Source: a bacterium
GTDB lineage: Bacteria; Hydrothermota; Tepidihabitantia; SM23-42; JAOAFX01
Reading direction: 5' to 3'
NCBI GenBank assembly: GCA_049700315.1
Contig: JBNAVN010000003.1
Span: forward strand, 8,724-72,723
Length of the DNA: 64,000 bases
In this document: one piece after another, positions 5,272-59,704 of the stretch
Position numbering within the stretch: the first letter of the stretch is position 1
Layout: each line of letters starts with the position of its first letter
Made by a program: the position numbers and the translations under genes
Notes under the pieces: model-generated
Seen by the model: only the letters and a program-made list of their open reading frames with translations
Told to the model about the DNA's origin: nothing
Database searches by the model: none

Positions 5272-5376
5272 CCTTTTTTGAACTGACCATAATACATTGT
5301 AATTATATTGGTCATTAAGTGAATGTCAATAGCAATGATGGATTGACATTGCTATAAAAAGTACTATAATAAATTG

Positions 5377-5742
5377 ATGCTTCAGCAATTAAATGAATTT
5401 AAATATAATGCAGAGACCGGAAAGAGTTATATTGTATATTTTTTGAAATTCTGGCAGGACAGGAATGATTATATTGTAAAATATCAAATAAGGAGTGAAG
5501 AAAAAGATTTGTTCTGGTTTGGAAGAATTTCAAAAGAACGGGCTTTGATAGATCTGAAAATCACACCTGAAGAAATCAAATCAATTCCTGAGGAAGAAAT
5601 GGCTAAGAAAATAAAAGAACATTTGATGAAGTTGTTTACAGCGGTTATTAAAAAGGGGCTTGATAAGGGATTTGAAGAACCAGACACAGAATTTGTATTT
5701 TATAAAGAACCATTTGTGACAAAAAGAGTCTGGAATGGATGA
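5377..5742 (+). CDS. Hypothetical protein
   Basis: ORF with ATG at 5377, 6 nt after a TATAAT that is preceded by TTGACA at 16 nt spacing. No recognisable domain. Confidence 0.4.
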   Translation: MLQQLNEFKYNAETGKSYIVYFLKFWQDRNDYIVKYQIRSEEKDLFWFGRISKERALIDLKITPEEIKSIPEEEMAKKIKEHLMKLFTAVIKKGLDKGFEEPDTEFVFYKEPFVTKRVWNG

Positions 5743-5759
5743 TGTCTAAGCAAAAAAGC

Positions 5760-6190
5760 AGGGGTTAATTTTCTGACACAACTTTTTATGGCAGATTTGC
5801 GCTTCGTGTTTCGGATTTGAACCGTCAGACAAAACCGTAAAAACGAAAAACGATCTTCAAAGAAGGGTGAAGAAGGGGAAATAAGGGTGAAAAGGGGTGA
5901 AAAGGGGGAATTTTCAATTGGATTTCGGACTGCGAATCGGGTGGTACGCTCTGCTGGGCAAAATGCACTGCGTGCTGTGACAAAACGCTAACGCTGTACT
6001 AAACGCTTCGCTGTAACTGAACGCACTTCGTGCTGGGACTGAAGAGGAACCAATCGTCCATCTAATCCGCCACACTGCATGGCGGATGGACGCTGCAAAA
6101 TCTTTTGAATTTCTCTGTCAGACGAAACCGTAGGCATTTATTTGCAAGGCCAAAGCCTTGCCCTACGATTTCTCCATGAAATTTGTAGGT
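5760..6190. other. ORF-free, GC-richer segment with internal repeats; candidate ncRNA or regulatory region of unknown nature
   Basis: No ORF of 60 aa or more on either strand. By eye, base composition departs from the flanking AT-rich DNA. Direct repeat GTCAGACRAAACCGTA at 5824 and 6118. Purine decamer repeats at 5865-5910. AACGCT/CTTCGTGCTG-type repeats at 5964-6036. Strong hairpin ATCCGCCAcactgcaTGGCGGAT at 6065-6087. Confidence 0.3.
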
Positions 6191-6239
6191 GCGGTGATAA
6201 TAATCCTTGCATTATCAAAAATGTCAGATATAATATCCC

Positions 6240-8678
6240 GTGAAGAAGTTTTTACTACTTGATGCACATTCTTTGATATTCCGTGCCTATTTTGCATTTA
6301 TCAAAAATCCACTCAGGAATTCCAAAGGGCAGAACACCTCAGGAATTTATGGCTTTTTGAATTCAATAAGAAAAATAAAAACAAAATTTGCAAGTGATTA
6401 TATAGTTCTTGCATTTGATGCCCCTGACGAAACCTTCAGAGACAGATTATTCAAAGAATACAAGGCAACCCGTCCAGCCCCACCAAGGGATATCCCATTT
6501 CAGATTGAAAAGGCAAAAGAGATCAGCAAGTTTTTAGGCATGGTAGACTTTGAAATTCCCGGTTTTGAAGCAGATGACATACTTGCAACCCTGACGAAAA
6601 AATTAAAAGATAATGGTGAGGTCTATATCGTGAGTTCTGACAAAGACCTTATGCAACTTATCTCTCAAAATGTCTTTGTTTATGATGCAGTCAATGACAT
6701 AATCTATGATGCAGAAAAGGTGAGAGAAAAATTTGGTGTCCTGCCTGATAGAATTGGAGATTATCTCGCACTCTGCGGTGATTCAATTGACAATGTTCCC
6801 GGTGTTCCTGGCATCGGTCCCCATAGAGCAATAGAAATCCTGAAAAAATATCCGGACCTTAATCAGGCACTGGAAAAAGAACCAAAACTTGCTGAGCACC
6901 GTGAGACCCTGATGTTATCAAGAAAACTCGTGGCACTGGAAACAGATATTCCAATTGAAATAAATCCTGAAGCATTGAAGGCAAAAACCCCGGATGTCAA
7001 AGGTATTTTTGAAATTCTGTCCGAACTTGAATTCCATTCTTTGATAAAAGAATTTGCTGAAAGATATAATACCGAAAGTATAATCAGAAAAACAGATATC
7101 TCAAAGGCAGAAATAAAAAAGTATGCAGGAATCCATGTTGACGAAGACAATTTCTTTGTGAGTTTCAATGAAAATGAAGTCTATGTCGCATCTATAGAAG
7201 ATTCATTCAATATTATTTCCAGACCAGATATAACAAAGATTGGCTACGACCTGAAACAGGTGATAAAAACTGGACATTTGATATCACCTTTATTTGATGT
7301 GAAGATTGCGGTCTGGCTTATTGACCCGAACATAAAGAATAATGAATTTGAAGATATCTGTTTGAAGTATTTGAATTGTTATTGTGCGCCAACACCCGAA
7401 GCAATTTCCACACTTTCTCTAAAGCTCTATCCTATTTTGCAAAAAAAACTTGAGGAACTTAATGAAGTTGATCTCTACCGAGAAATTGAAGAACCCCTCA
7501 TATTTGTCCTTGCGCAAATGGAGAAAAGAGGCATAGGCATTGATGTTAACTACTTGAAAGAATTGAAGAAGCATATTGAAAGGGATATTACGACACTGGC
7601 TGACGAGTGCTACAGGATTGCCGGCAGTGTATTCAATATCAATTCACCAAAGCAACTCGCTCATATTCTGTTTGAAAAACTCAGACTGACACCATTGAAA
7701 AAAGGGAAATCCCACTATTCAACAGATTTTGAAGTGCTCCAGCAATTGAGTTTGAAACATGAATTACCAAAAAAAATCCTTGAATATCGGGAACTGGCAA
7801 AAGTTTCAAGCACCTACATTGACCCTTTGATTGGATTTGCAAGAAACAACAGGATACATACAACCTTCAACCAGACCGGCACGGCTACAGGCAGATTATC
7901 TTCAAACAATCCCAATATCCAGAACATCCCCATCCGCAGTCGCCTGGGTAATGAACTGCGAAAGGCATTTGTAGCACAGAAAGGATTCATGCTTGTTTCA
8001 GCTGATTATTCCCAGATTGAATTGAGAATACTTGCCCATGTCTCAAAAGACAGAAATCTTATTGAAGCATTCAAATCCAGTCGTGATATCCACAATCACA
8101 CTGCCTCATTGATATTTGCTCTTAGCGAAGATGAAGTTGATGACGAAAAAAGGCGCATCGCCAAAGTTGTTAACTATGGGTTAATATATGGAATGAGTGA
8201 CTATGGACTTGCTCAGGAACTCGGAATTTCCGTTGAACAAGCAGGGCAATTCATACAGTCCTATTACGGTTTGTATCCTGAAGTTGATAAATGGCGGCTA
8301 TCAGCAATATCAAGTGTTGAGCAAAAAGGTTATACAGAGACACTCTTCAGCAGAAAAAGACCTATCCCTGAAATAAATTCTGAAAATTATAATCTCAGAG
8401 AATTTGCAAAAAGACTGGCAATCAATACACCAATCCAGGGGACCGCTGCGGATTTGATTAAGATGGCAATGATTGAGGTTGAAAAGAGATTAAACCAGGC
8501 ACATTTCAAAAGTGGACTTCTATTATCAATCCACGATGAGTTGTTGTTTGAAATAGAAGAAGAAAGAACTGATGAAGCAAGAGAAATCATAAAGAAGACA
8601 ATGGAAAATGTCTGTGAGTTCAATGTGCCGATTGTAGTAAATATTAATATCGGAAAAAACTGGGCAGAAGCCCATTGA
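6240..8678 (+). CDS. polA: DNA polymerase I
   Basis: N-terminal 5-prime nuclease domain (LLLDAHSLIFRAYFAF). C-terminal family A polymerase motifs (RRIAKVVNYGLIYG, DYSQIELR). 812 aa. GTG start 5 nt after a TATAAT. Confidence 0.9.
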   Translation: MKKFLLLDAHSLIFRAYFAFIKNPLRNSKGQNTSGIYGFLNSIRKIKTKFASDYIVLAFDAPDETFRDRLFKEYKATRPAPPRDIPFQIEKAKEISKFLGMVDFEIPGFEADDILATLTKKLKDNGEVYIVSSDKDLMQLISQNVFVYDAVNDIIYDAEKVREKFGVLPDRIGDYLALCGDSIDNVPGVPGIGPHRAIEILKKYPDLNQALEKEPKLAEHRETLMLSRKLVALETDIPIEINPEALKAKTPDVKGIFEILSELEFHSLIKEFAERYNTESIIRKTDISKAEIKKYAGIHVDEDNFFVSFNENEVYVASIEDSFNIISRPDITKIGYDLKQVIKTGHLISPLFDVKIAVWLIDPNIKNNEFEDICLKYLNCYCAPTPEAISTLSLKLYPILQKKLEELNEVDLYREIEEPLIFVLAQMEKRGIGIDVNYLKELKKHIERDITTLADECYRIAGSVFNINSPKQLAHILFEKLRLTPLKKGKSHYSTDFEVLQQLSLKHELPKKILEYRELAKVSSTYIDPLIGFARNNRIHTTFNQTGTATGRLSSNNPNIQNIPIRSRLGNELRKAFVAQKGFMLVSADYSQIELRILAHVSKDRNLIEAFKSSRDIHNHTASLIFALSEDEVDDEKRRIAKVVNYGLIYGMSDYGLAQELGISVEQAGQFIQSYYGLYPEVDKWRLSAISSVEQKGYTETLFSRKRPIPEINSENYNLREFAKRLAINTPIQGTAADLIKMAMIEVEKRLNQAHFKSGLLLSIHDELLFEIEEERTDEAREIIKKTMENVCEFNVPIVVNINIGKNWAEAH

Positions 8679-8721: not shown

Positions 8722-8919
8722 GTGATCACCAGAGAAACGAAGGTTGAGAATATTCTCAGAGAATTTCCCGAGAAGATACCTATCTTTGTACAAATGGGTC
8801 TACCCTGCTTTGTCTGCGGTGAACGGTTCTGGGGCACAATTGAAGAATTGTGTCAGAGATATGATATTGAACCAGAAACATTATCAAAAGAATTGAACAG
8901 AATCAATAAAGGGGTGTGA
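8722..8919 (+). CDS. DUF1858-type small redox/disulfide domain protein (hybrid-cluster-protein-associated domain family)
   Basis: 65 aa with GLPCFVCG...ETLEELC core typical of DUF1858. GTG start 5 nt after a TATAAT. Confidence 0.5.
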   Translation: MITRETKVENILREFPEKIPIFVQMGLPCFVCGERFWGTIEELCQRYDIEPETLSKELNRINKGV

Positions 8920-9773
8920 ATATGCAAAAATGGTTATATTGTCCGGTCTGCAGAGGAAGTTTGGTGAAGAAACAATCAGTAATTCTTTGCAAAAAGTGTG
9001 GCTGGCAACATTATAAAAATCCTCTGCCTTCAGTTGCCGGATTTATAATGAATGCTGATGATGAGATATTATTGATCAAACGCGGTGCTGAACCAGAAAA
9101 AGGCAGATGGGCACTACCTTCGGGCTTTATTGAACCCAATGAAACACCAGAGCAGGCAGTATTGAGAGAATTGAAGGAAGAAACTGGGTTGAATGGCACG
9201 ATAAAAAAGATGCTCGGAATTTATGTTGAACCAACAAGGTTCTATGGAGATGTGCTTCTCATTGGTTATGAGATTGAAGGCACCGGTGGCAAGATCAGAC
9301 CCGGCTCAGATACCACAGAAGTCAATTTCTTTTCCAAAAACAAACTGCCAAGAATTCCATTTTTGAGCCATCGCGAAATCATCAATCAGGGAATCAATAG
9401 TCAAACAGATAATGTCTATGTTGAAGTCCTGAAATCAAAGATTTCTGAAGCAGTCATTACTGATACAATTCTCTTTTATAAGGGAAGTATGGGTATAGAT
9501 GCAAAAATTATGCGGTCAGCGCACATTAAGCCCGGAGAAAAGGTGCAGGTTTTAAATTATGATAATGGCGAAAGGCTTGAAACCTATGTTATCCCTGAAA
9601 AACCAGATTCAAGGAAGTTCATCCTTTATGGTCCGGCTTCATTAAAAGGTAAGAAGGGACAGAGATTATGCATACTCTCTTATGCATTTGTTGCCCAGAA
9701 TAAAGCAGAATTTTTTAAGCCGAGGATTGTCATCCTTGATACAAAAAATTTCATCAAAAAAATCAAATCCTAA
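8916..9773 (+). CDS. Fusion protein: zinc-ribbon NUDIX hydrolase (NudC-like) N-terminal domain plus aspartate 1-decarboxylase (PanD) C-terminal domain
   Basis: CPVCRG...CKKCGW zinc ribbon. Nudix box GRWALPSGFIEPNETPEQAVLRELKEETG. C-terminal 110 aa align with PanD, including the Gly-Ser self-processing site (YKGSMGID), NG.R..TY and GPASL regions. One continuous ORF, no internal start for the PanD part. Confidence 0.7.
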   Translation: MNMQKWLYCPVCRGSLVKKQSVILCKKCGWQHYKNPLPSVAGFIMNADDEILLIKRGAEPEKGRWALPSGFIEPNETPEQAVLRELKEETGLNGTIKKMLGIYVEPTRFYGDVLLIGYEIEGTGGKIRPGSDTTEVNFFSKNKLPRIPFLSHREIINQGINSQTDNVYVEVLKSKISEAVITDTILFYKGSMGIDAKIMRSAHIKPGEKVQVLNYDNGERLETYVIPEKPDSRKFILYGPASLKGKKGQRLCILSYAFVAQNKAEFFKPRIVILDTKNFIKKIKS

Positions 9774-17774: not shown

Positions 17775-17802
17775 TTGACATATGCAGGAATTTTCGTATA
17801 AT
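17775..17802 (+). promoter_or_regulatory. Sigma70-type promoter, TTGACA-N16-TATAAT
   Basis: TTGACA at 17775 and TATAAT at 17797, read directly. Upstream of the PAS-GGDEF gene. Confidence 0.45.
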
Positions 17803-31740: not shown

Positions 31741-32037
31741 TTGAAAAAAAGTCAAGCCAACGAAGTTGTGGTCAATATCTTCGGAAATGACTATCGGATA
31801 ACCTCCGAAGATATGGACGAGGAACGAATTAAGAAAATAGCCGAAATTGTGGATAAGAAGATGCGGGATATTCACCGTGAATTTCCCCTGCCATCAACCA
31901 CCAAGATTGCCGTGCTCGCCTGTTTGAATTTGGTTGATGAGTATCTGCAGAAAGAAGAGCATCTTAGCAAGAAAAATTTGGAATTGGAACAAAGAATTAA
32001 TACGTTGATCCTCAAGATTGATGAGGTAATTACTTAA
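31741..32037 (+). CDS. zapA: Cell division protein ZapA
   Basis: VNIFGNDYRI N-terminal motif and C-terminal coiled coil. 98 aa. pheT-zapA linkage is common. Confidence 0.65.
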   Translation: MKKSQANEVVVNIFGNDYRITSEDMDEERIKKIAEIVDKKMRDIHREFPLPSTTKIAVLACLNLVDEYLQKEEHLSKKNLELEQRINTLILKIDEVIT

Positions 32038-32204
32038 TTCGTTCCCTGCGATGCTCGTGATGGGCATTAAGTCTTGAGCCAACACCCATCGTTTGGGAGC
32101 CAAGTTCGGCTACAGGTTTTCCTGTAGTTGACAGGCGCCCACTTTAACCCTGGGTTCAAAGACTTTTTCCCACACGGCATACGCGGGGAACTTTCTAAGA
32201 TTTT

Positions 32205-52776: not shown

Positions 52777-52812
52777 AAGAGGGAGGCATTTACCTCCCTC
52801 TTTTTACTCTAT
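52777..52812. terminator. Bidirectional rho-independent terminator
   Basis: AAAAAGAGGGAGGcatttaCCTCCCTCTTTTT: perfect 13-bp stem flanked by A-run and T-run. Confidence 0.6.
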
Positions 52813-52813
52813 G

Positions 52814-52870
52814 TTACTTTTTTTTCTTCTTACCCTTCTTTTTAGTTTTCTTTGCCTTGCACTTTGGCAT
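52814..52870 (-). CDS. 18-codon polybasic mini-ORF (MPKCKAKKTKKKGKKKKK)
   Basis: Minus strand: consensus promoter, GGAGG 4 nt before ATG, 13 Lys of 18 residues, TAA stop abutting the bidirectional terminator. Not in the ORF track because it is under 60 aa. Confidence 0.45.
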   Translation of the reverse strand: MPKCKAKKTKKKGKKKKK

Positions 52871-59363: not shown

Positions 59364-59411
59364 AATATGAGCTAAATCCTGATACCCTGATACCCTGATA
59401 TTCCACCCATC

Positions 59412-59615
59412 TCATATCTTCTCCACCTCAATCGCAAAATCAGGACAATATATTTCACACAATTGACAACCAGTGCAGGCTTCAGGATTGGCGACTTTTG
59501 CCTTATCTCTTTCCATTATCAGAACTTTCTTTGGACAAAATGCAACACATATTTCACAACCTTTGCACCATTTTTCGTTGATTTTCACTTCAAATTTCTG
59601 GGTGGAAACTGACAT
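59412..59615 (-). CDS. 2-oxoacid:ferredoxin oxidoreductase delta subunit (2x[4Fe-4S] ferredoxin)
   Basis: CKGCEICVAFCP and CTGCQLCEIYCP motifs. 67 aa. First gene of the four-gene operon. Confidence 0.7.
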   Translation of the reverse strand: MSVSTQKFEVKINEKWCKGCEICVAFCPKKVLIMERDKAKVANPEACTGCQLCEIYCPDFAIEVEKI

Positions 59616-59704
59616 ATATTTTATATTATATTCAAAAAATTCAATATGTCAAGAAATTTTTTCTTGACTTACATAAATGTTCAAATATAATTACAACAGA
59701 GAAA

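Follow-up and report, generated by a model that had tools for sequence, protein, structure and literature searches.

A lineage-specific, repeat-laden segment upstream of polA in a WOR-3 bacterium and its possible nature as a mosaic of double-stranded DNA sites

What is the GC-rich, repeat-laden segment that precedes polA in a bacterium of candidate division WOR-3, and does it act as RNA or as DNA? The segment lies in a 64,000-nt stretch of contig JBNAVN010000003.1 (hereafter the window, 64 kb), in the spacer between a gene for a 122-aa protein and polA (5743–6239); the source is assigned to WOR-3, and the top match of polA in the protein collection was 76% identical and carried that name. The original prediction, made from the letters of the window, had marked 5750–6240 as unusual and had offered three options, namely a structured non-coding RNA, a protein-binding array or a decayed small element. 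We found that the second and a decayed or rearranged version of the third are compatible with the data, whereas the structured RNA is unsupported: the region has no Rfam match, contains no promoter-like site above 9/12, is missing at this position in eleven relatives, and carries modules that are inverted relative to each other between species, with no compensatory change in the stem. Our favoured reading, to which we assign a probability of only about 0.4, is that the segment is a rearrangement-prone mosaic of double-stranded DNA sites, with a phased binding array and a dyad site, and not a stand-alone structured RNA.

The neighbourhoods of relatives were collected via homologues of polA and of the 122-aa protein. 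In eleven of these loci (L001, L002, L004, L062, L063, L064 and L067–L071) a TPR/PEGA gene, the 122-aa gene and polA are arranged as in the window; the spacer between the latter two measures 74–223 bp and the segment is missing. It is also missing from the ~140 bp upstream of polA in L003, L060 and L061, where there is no 122-aa gene. The sole part of the relatives' spacers that aligns with the window is the polA promoter (TTGCAT-16-TATAAT, 6207–6234, + strand), which is conserved in all of them and lies outside the unusual segment, so that the right end of the predicted interval belongs to polA itself while 5760–6180 is indeed unusual. The nearest of the eleven, L064 (90% identical in the 122-aa protein), aligns with the window in pairwise comparison at both flanks only, and therefore the middle, ~5760–6180 (~420 bp), is specific to the window. 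Several small pieces are nonetheless shared with the L064 spacer: the 25 nt at 5829–5853, which start inside the first copy of a direct repeat, match L064 906–929 in inverted orientation, and two short blocks, CTTTTTATGG and GCGCTTCGTGT (5782–5809, + strand, found by word matches), together with one sequence similar to the window's tandem units, recur there inverted and in permuted order. These pieces appear to point to local shuffling.

The anatomy of the segment agrees closely with what had been described by eye. GC content within 5800–6200 rises to 0.47–0.515, compared with 38% for the window overall and ~0.24–0.35 in most intergenic gaps, and the 225-bp stretch with the highest GC content of the whole 64 kb (0.52) begins at 5872. 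No open reading frame (ORF) of 60 aa or more is present in the spacer, the longest on either strand being 53 aa, and a Pfam scan of it gave nothing better than E=0.08. Two direct copies of a 16-nt repeat, GTCAGACAAAACCGTA at 5824–5839, with the core CAGACAAAAC, and GTCAGACGAAACCGTA at 6117–6132 (both + strand), are identical at 15/16 positions and are spaced by 293 bp, within 1 nt of the positions first given; no further copy occurs in the 64 kb with up to 3 mismatches allowed, and we estimate the chance of a 15/16 repeat within 500 bp at ~1e-3. A G-tract/purine array of the GGGTGAAGARGGGGA type occupies 5860–5910 (+ strand), with five helically phased decamers AARARGGGKR at 5860–5909 (period 10, 5.2 copies). 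Over 51 nt it is richer in purines than any other stretch of that length in the window (92% purine, zero C), and at 5865–5908 it contains the only canonical G-quadruplex (G4) motif, (G3+N1-7)x4, found on either strand of the window (0.09 expected from shuffles); quadruplex folding by this sequence is putative. The degenerate repeats noted at 5964–6036 correspond to four tandem units of 18–22 nt, AAAATGCACTGCGTGCTGTGAC, AAAACGCTAACGCTGTAC, TAAACGCTTCGCTGTAAC and TGAACGCACTTCGTGCTGGGAC (5960–6039, + strand), plus a partial fifth at 5945–5959; their period is 18 at 5974–6024, and one 20-nt pair (5962, 6020) is 85% identical. This amplification is specific to the window.

Two palindromes complete the segment. 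The first (6055–6092) has the core ATCCGCCA-CACTGCA-TGGCGGAT at 6065–6087 and outer arms CGTCC/GGACG, and its core is the 8-bp-stem hairpin that had been reported, which appears in the predicted folds of both strands. The second, a long imperfect palindrome at 6119–6180 recognized from folds, pairs the second copy of the direct repeat with CCTACGATTTCTCC (6165–6178) and encloses a GC hairpin, GCAAGGC-CAAA-GCCTTGC (6147–6164), with no U-tract; it may form the end of the transcription unit of the 122-aa gene. Besides, of the three copies of ACGRTTTYG in the 64 kb two are inside the segment, and the sole copies in L064 and L065 are located in the spacer 3' of the 122-aa gene. The view that this is not random intergenic DNA was borne out, as the repeats depart statistically from random sequence and a related species conserves two modules far above the neutral level. 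Other short tandem repeats were observed elsewhere in the window. A second purine repeat, AAGTGGG x6.7 (2310–2356), fills most of the 56-bp spacer from hypF (8–2308) to a hypC-like ORF (ATG at 2365); the corresponding spacer is 6 bp in L003 and 20 bp in L069, which makes the heptamer expansion specific to the window's lineage. A perfect 8-nt repeat, CCTGATAC x2.9, is found at 59378–59400 in a 341-bp gap (59364–59704).

Further evidence on the nature of the segment comes from a closer species, here called species B, which is represented by two metagenome-assembled genomes (MAGs), L065 (GCA_039802245.1) and L057 (JBDRWH). They were taken as one species because their polA is identical at 593/596 positions; it is 85% identical to that of the window. 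In L065 the decamer array is found on the opposite strand at 1504–1556, with 49/56 aligned positions identical and a local score of 65 versus a shuffle maximum of 26. Three 1-nt indels leave all five G-tracts intact, and the CAGACAAAAC core adjoins the array (14/15) as it does in the first copy of the direct repeat. The palindrome is represented by the 18-mer CCACACTGCATGGCGGAT, identical at 18/18 positions, and by ATCGTCCA at 8/8. A further match, ACTGCGAATC...GGTGGTACG (5929–5948, + strand), is collinear with sequence beside the L065 palindrome and is borderline, being a 10-nt exact word of which we estimate ~0.3 to be expected by chance. No alignment is possible for the DNA that separates the modules, and in the two flanking genes only 67/127 of the 4-fold degenerate sites (53%) are identical; we therefore conclude that the array and the palindrome are conserved well above the neutral level.

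Conservation of these modules does not extend to their place or direction. In L065 they are not between the 122-aa gene and polA but between the divergent promoters of the TPR gene and the 122-aa gene. Promoters were scored here and below by a consensus scan only, against the 12 positions of TTGACA/TATAAT. Two divergent 11/12 promoters (1368, 1637) frame the L065 element, which takes up all 268 bp from one -35 box to the other and contains no promoter-like site. Relative to the array the palindrome is inverted between window and L065. Within this single homologous hairpin the loop is conserved at 7/7 positions and the 5' arm has two changes, with no compensatory change in the 3' arm, a pattern expected of a sequence-specific duplex site and not of a conserved RNA helix. 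The contig of L057 begins within a related but distinct decamer array on the opposite strand, ~210 bp upstream of the -35 box of polA, and a 10/12 minus-strand promoter fires straight into this array. The canonical G4 motif is present in L065 at 1505–1548 and absent from the L057 array. In addition, the window has four A-tracts at 9–11-bp spacing which L065 does not keep, so that A-tract curvature was rejected as a conserved property. What all three arrays have in common is 10-nt phasing, that is, one helical turn, and neither G4 spacing nor A-tract curvature. The 122-aa gene has lost its place beside polA in species B, so that a break in synteny coincides with this spacer. Two other motifs of this neighbourhood were also seen in relatives. 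L066 has a G-tract run, GGGCAGGGATATAAGGGGGAATAAT, at 1390–1450 between divergent promoters of the TPR gene and the 122-aa gene, which resembles a shortened array of two or three units. The spacers flanking the 122-aa gene also repeatedly contain the 8-nt tandem motif ATGGTTRW (seen, for instance, in TGGTTAAATGGTTGAATGGTTAAAC), which is found upstream of the polA promoter in L001 (2904–2960) and L063, and beside the array within the L065 element (1470–1500).

Because the sequence of the modules is kept while their position and orientation change, they most likely act as DNA, and the location of the species B copy in an apparently untranscribed spacer between divergent promoters also argues for action at this level. 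On the favoured reading of double-stranded DNA sites, the spacer between the 122-aa gene and polA would have expanded through local events of tandem amplification, duplication and inversion. Selection would act on two modules, the five-unit G-tract decamer array with its adjacent CAGACAAAAC and the 23-bp dyad ATCCGCCA-N7-TGGCGGAT, and these may serve as a cooperative binding array and an operator for one or more putative DNA-binding proteins. We infer that the bound proteins would organise or insulate nearby promoters, that of polA in the window and those of the TPR/PEGA gene and the 122-aa gene in species B. Recent amplification, specific to the window, would have given rise to the 18–22-nt tandem units and to copy 2 of the 16-nt repeat, whereas the 16-nt motif itself would be ancestral. 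Comparable phased arrays are known. ParR-parC iterons, omega heptads and the 10–11-bp repeats of OmpR/PhoB consist of four to ten direct repeats spaced near one helical turn and lie near promoters, and omega heptads act in either orientation. The present array resembles them in that five units are kept in both the window and L065. Unlike them, it has no adjacent cognate partition, repressor or response-regulator gene, its nearest promoter is 85–300 bp away and its binding by protein is putative; to our knowledge the unit AARARGGGKR matches no described operator.

Several observations weigh against this reading. No binding protein was recognized, and the adjacent 122-aa protein has no recognizable DNA-binding fold: its AlphaFold2 model is confident (predicted local distance difference test score, pLDDT, 92), with a beta-sheet and a long helix, but it has no match among folds of the PDB (best E 0.2, template modelling score below 0.3) and no helix-turn-helix, so that its role as binder of the modules is unsupported. 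The modules are known from only two or three genomes, all of them metagenome assemblies, and the conservation argument thus has few comparisons behind it; if the modules had recently been transferred or gene-converted, the result could look like selection. In the window, ~300 bp separate the array from the next promoter downstream, a long distance for an activator or repressor site of the classical kind. Other points favour RNA. For both strands of the segment the predicted folds are somewhat more stable than those of shuffles (z = -2.2 to -2.7), a moderate excess which is what a few palindromes would yield either way, and the GC content of the segment resembles that of the 6S RNA gene of the same window (0.53). 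Moreover, a terminator scan found no terminator-like site between a 12/12 promoter at 5343 and polA; read-through from this promoter therefore probably transcribes the segment in the window, where it may have a role as RNA.

The case for RNA can be stated more fully. Instead of a stand-alone gene, the segment could be a long 3' untranslated region of the 122-aa gene or a small RNA (sRNA) processed from it, in which a single-stranded purine/G-tract array, serving as a sponge for protein or ribosomes or as an RNA G-quadruplex, is followed by transcript-ending, stabilising hairpins; a clade-restricted G-rich sponge RNA of ~350 nt is possible. If the segment is transcribed from the + strand, the likeliest origin is the promoter at 5343 (TTGACA-16-TATAAT, 5343–5370), which is on the same strand and has no terminator before 6133–6169. 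The 6S RNA gene of the window (32040–32193) likewise lacks its own promoter and follows an ORF immediately; the + strand folds with z of -2.2 to -2.4; the 10/12 promoter of L057 fires into the G-rich strand of the array; and the second purine tandem repeat is within the hypF–hypC transcript. A GC-rich island in an AT-rich genome would also fit an RNA, and the related MAGs, judging by their names, apparently come from hot springs. Against this, the position of the segment is not conserved, no Rfam family matches it, and the L065 element, which is flanked by divergent promoters, contains none itself. Since the hairpin is flipped with respect to the array from one genome to the other, no single RNA strand has the same array and loop in both genomes, and besides the absence of compensatory changes the minus strand folds equally well. 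Such an element is in our view unlikely.

The searches for known RNAs agree with this assessment. An Rfam 15 covariance scan of the whole window at gathering score identified only the 6S RNA gene, a permissive scan of 5650–6300 had a best score of 16.7 bits (E=2.2) against a gathering score of 70, and the scan of the relatives' loci gave only tRNAs, while ARAGORN found no tRNA or tmRNA gene in the window. Known families, including RNase P, transfer-messenger RNA (tmRNA), signal recognition particle (SRP) RNA, 6S RNA and riboswitches, were thus rejected at gathering and permissive thresholds alike, in line with the earlier failure to match the first, second, third or fourth of these by eye. The segment is similar to these RNAs in size (300–400 nt) and in its enrichment of GC in an AT-rich genome, but it differs in lacking a covariance-model or ARAGORN match, and the genuine 6S RNA is encoded elsewhere. 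No promoter-like site above 9/12 was found on either strand of 5743–6200, and neither there nor in the L065 element did the consensus scan show an sRNA gene with its own promoter and terminator. The original prediction had proposed an Rfam scan and a comparison with close relatives, and had stated that absence of an Rfam match and absence or divergence of the segment in those relatives would speak against a conserved RNA. Both analyses were done, with no Rfam match and no segment at the same position in relatives; because the segment is lineage-specific and without such a match, this outcome is largely what was observed.

A quite different possibility is that the modules are selfish or neutral, that is, low-copy units of the type of repetitive extragenic palindromes (REP), bacterial interspersed mosaic elements (BIME) or miniature elements which shuffle among intergenic sites and have no function for the host. 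The REP/BIME of enterobacteria are intergenic and non-coding, consist of an imperfect palindromic unit and other short motifs in variable orientation, are GC-richer than their surroundings, often occur between convergent or tandem genes, and reach hundreds of copies per genome. The intergenic imperfect palindrome at 6055–6092, together with the other motifs and the variable orientation, corresponds to such a unit, and palindrome and motifs form a mosaic with orientation flips as in BIME. The modules occupy different spacers and orientations in the two species, species B has arrays at two loci, one of its contigs breaks inside an array as repeats often cause, and it is precisely at this spacer that the synteny of the 122-aa gene with polA is interrupted in species B. 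In other lineages (L069 and L070) the spacer next to it, 403 bp long, has hairpin-rich inserts of unrelated sequence. These inserts (L069 9598–10000 and L070 748–1150) lengthen the spacer from the TPR gene to the 122-aa gene, which is 102 bp in the window; they contain the GC hairpins CCGAGACTCGG, CAGACCTTGGTCTG and GCCGAGTAAACTCGGC, are unrelated to the window segment and have no Rfam match. On the other side, the high copy number of REP/BIME is not seen here: the 18-mer (up to 3 mismatches) and the array each occur once in the 64 kb, and neither was found elsewhere in the relatives' loci, which cover ~100 kb outside this neighbourhood. There is no similarity in sequence to BIME, the decamer array has no counterpart in BIME, and no RAYT-type transposase is nearby. 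No terminal inverted repeats of at least 10 bp and no adjacent transposase or recombinase were found, blastn against plasmid and phage collections gave nothing, viral contigs contained only unrelated or chance matches, and the unconserved DNA between the modules is a poor fit to a recently spread unit. We regard a purely selfish or neutral origin as a doubtful explanation.

It is improbable, though somewhat easier to entertain than the structural readings below, that the segment is a mere by-product of mutation, in which slippage and illegitimate recombination expanded purine- and GC-rich motifs in a spacer that tolerates them and the pieces shared with relatives are ancestral leftovers. The tandem units are amplified in the window only, L064 having one similar unit, and the heptamer expansion between hypF and hypC (56 bp versus 6 and 20 bp in relatives) shows a second case of such growth. 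The arrays are also comparable to the short tandemly repeated repetitive (STRR) sequences of cyanobacteria, which are short, intergenic, lineage-specific tandem repeats of variable copy number, form highly dispersed families and have no assigned function; the window likewise has short (7–10 nt) intergenic tandem repeats, including the AAGTGGG x6.7 array. However, it belongs to a different phylum and its 64 kb include no more than two purine arrays, one being conserved between species. With 53% identity at 4-fold sites, neutral leftovers would be unlikely to match at 18/18 and 49/56 positions (0.55^18 ~2e-5), and all five G-tracts are kept in spite of three indels.

Readings that rely on a strand-specific structure are the least probable of those considered. 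One of them takes the array as a G-quadruplex or R-loop hotspot for recombination: transcription with the G-rich strand as non-template would expose the array, and breaks would drive the inversions, the duplications and the loss of synteny at polA, a scenario that we consider very improbable. Its attraction is that the canonical G4 motif is present in the window and L065, that in both the window and L057 the G-rich strand is the non-template strand for a strong promoter, and that rearrangement breakpoints and inversions cluster at the array. A comparable system is the pilE G4 of Neisseria, a compact 16-nt motif with 1–2-nt loops, an sRNA promoter and a dedicated gene-conversion system. Here too a G-tract motif is located upstream of a gene, the L057 promoter fires into the array so that the G-rich strand is the non-template one, and DNA rearrangement is linked to the locus; in contrast to pilE, the loops are 6–7 nt, there are no silent cassettes, and both G4 and recombination are predicted. 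If true, such a hotspot would be a bacterial analogue of the pilE G4 outside antigenic-variation systems. The other version takes the C-rich, G-free complement as a Rho loading (rut) site that halts transcription arriving from the other side. The complement of the array is without G over 51 nt and has YC-rich units every 10 nt, and since terminator-like hairpins are at chance in this genome, factor-dependent termination is plausible. Each of these readings suits some of the loci and not others. The G4 loop rule is broken by the L057 array, L065 has no promoter that reads through its array, loops of 6–7 nt rich in A make weak G4s, the orientation to neighbouring genes is inconsistent for rut, and the conserved palindrome is left unexplained.

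A number of more specific identities were also considered and rejected. A leader or riboswitch of polA is contradicted by the conserved promoter of polA itself, from which the gene starts 5 nt past the -10 box, and by the absence of the segment upstream of polA in relatives. A protein gene or pseudogene does not fit, as there are only short ORFs and no Pfam signal, and the period of 10 together with 1-nt indels in the array is incompatible with a reading frame. A replication origin is equally unsupported: no DnaA box is present in the segment, the window has about as many boxes as chance predicts, there is no neighbouring rep gene, and GC skew in the window tracks gene strand only; units of 18–22 nt resembling iterons are present, and the other features of an iteron origin are lacking. 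For a miniature inverted-repeat or other small transposable element, no inverted repeats of at least 10 bp were found in 5700–6300 and there is no other copy. A simple insertion with a 16-bp target-site duplication was rejected on account of the ancestral nature of the repeat, which occurs once, inverted, in the L064 spacer; the sequence to the right of the first copy is ancestral as well. An invertible promoter switch would need flanking inverted repeats, of which none of at least 10 bp exist, and an internal promoter, which is lacking. A type III toxin-antitoxin locus (ToxI-like) was rejected because the downstream gene is polA, with its own promoter, and not a toxin endoribonuclease. A string similar to a tRNA T-arm (GGTTCAAATCC-like, minus strand, 5812–5822) has a stem of only 3 bp and was negative in ARAGORN. 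Among viral contigs, the 16-mer repeat gave 52 single matches with no flanking similarity, the array pattern matched only coding sequence rich in Gly/Glu/Lys, and the palindrome 18-mer gave zero matches. A metagenome scan with the pattern AATCCGCCAN7TGGCGGATGGAC found no match, though this pattern is over-strict and would miss L065 too.

The two genes that border the spacer are both on the + strand. The 122-aa gene (5377–5742) has its actual start at ATG 5377, 6 nt past the -10 box of the 12/12 promoter; its product has no Pfam domain and no assigned function, and its family of 92 homologues is limited to WOR-3/TA06 and is mostly found beside polA. The polA gene (6240–8678; Pfam DNA_pol_A, 7e-154) starts with GTG at 6240, 5 nt past the -10 box, implying a leaderless mRNA. 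The promoters of this genome are very clean: five 12/12 TTGACA-16-TATAAT sites occur in the first 40 kb, and those that were checked are at gene starts. Start codons 5–6 nt past near-consensus -10 boxes were observed for polA and the 122-aa gene in the window (5365–5379, 6229–6242) and in relatives (L001, L003, L004, L057 and L060–L065), and other 12/12 promoters end right at ORF starts in the window, e.g. at 17802, 24959 and 33842. Leaderless mRNAs thus appear to be common in this lineage, as far as start spacing can tell. Hairpins followed by T-runs were at chance in the 40 kb scanned (14 vs 14.1 expected, 13 vs 16.3). One textbook terminator, GAGGGAGG-CATTTA-CCTCCCTC-TTTTT, is located at 52780–52806, and next to it the minus strand has a tiny lysine-rich ORF, MPKCKAKKTKKKGKKKKK (52806–52862), with an AAGGAGG Shine-Dalgarno sequence upstream, which corresponds to the most pyrimidine-rich + strand stretch. 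The 6S RNA gene (RF00013, 80 bits) begins 3 nt past an ORF at 31741–32037, with no promoter-like site nearby. Downstream of polA, a NUDIX domain (residues 38–144) and aspartate decarboxylase PanD (169–280) are fused in one 285-aa ORF (8916–9773), and the same fusion was called in L001.

Taken as a whole, the feature is a lineage-specific patchwork within a known class of intergenic mosaic and tandem repeat DNA. Its practical value is modest, as it is limited to a few metagenome-assembled genomes and its function is proposed from sequence. For genome scans it offers a caution, in that a GC-rich, repeat-laden island with hairpins resembles a structured RNA while comparison among relatives indicates a mosaic at the DNA level. 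The host genome has unusually clean signals, with near-consensus promoters, many leaderless mRNAs and few intrinsic terminators. Should the modules indeed be bound by proteins, this uncultured WOR-3 lineage would have its first described DNA signals of a cis-regulatory or architectural kind, and they would stand beside an essential gene.

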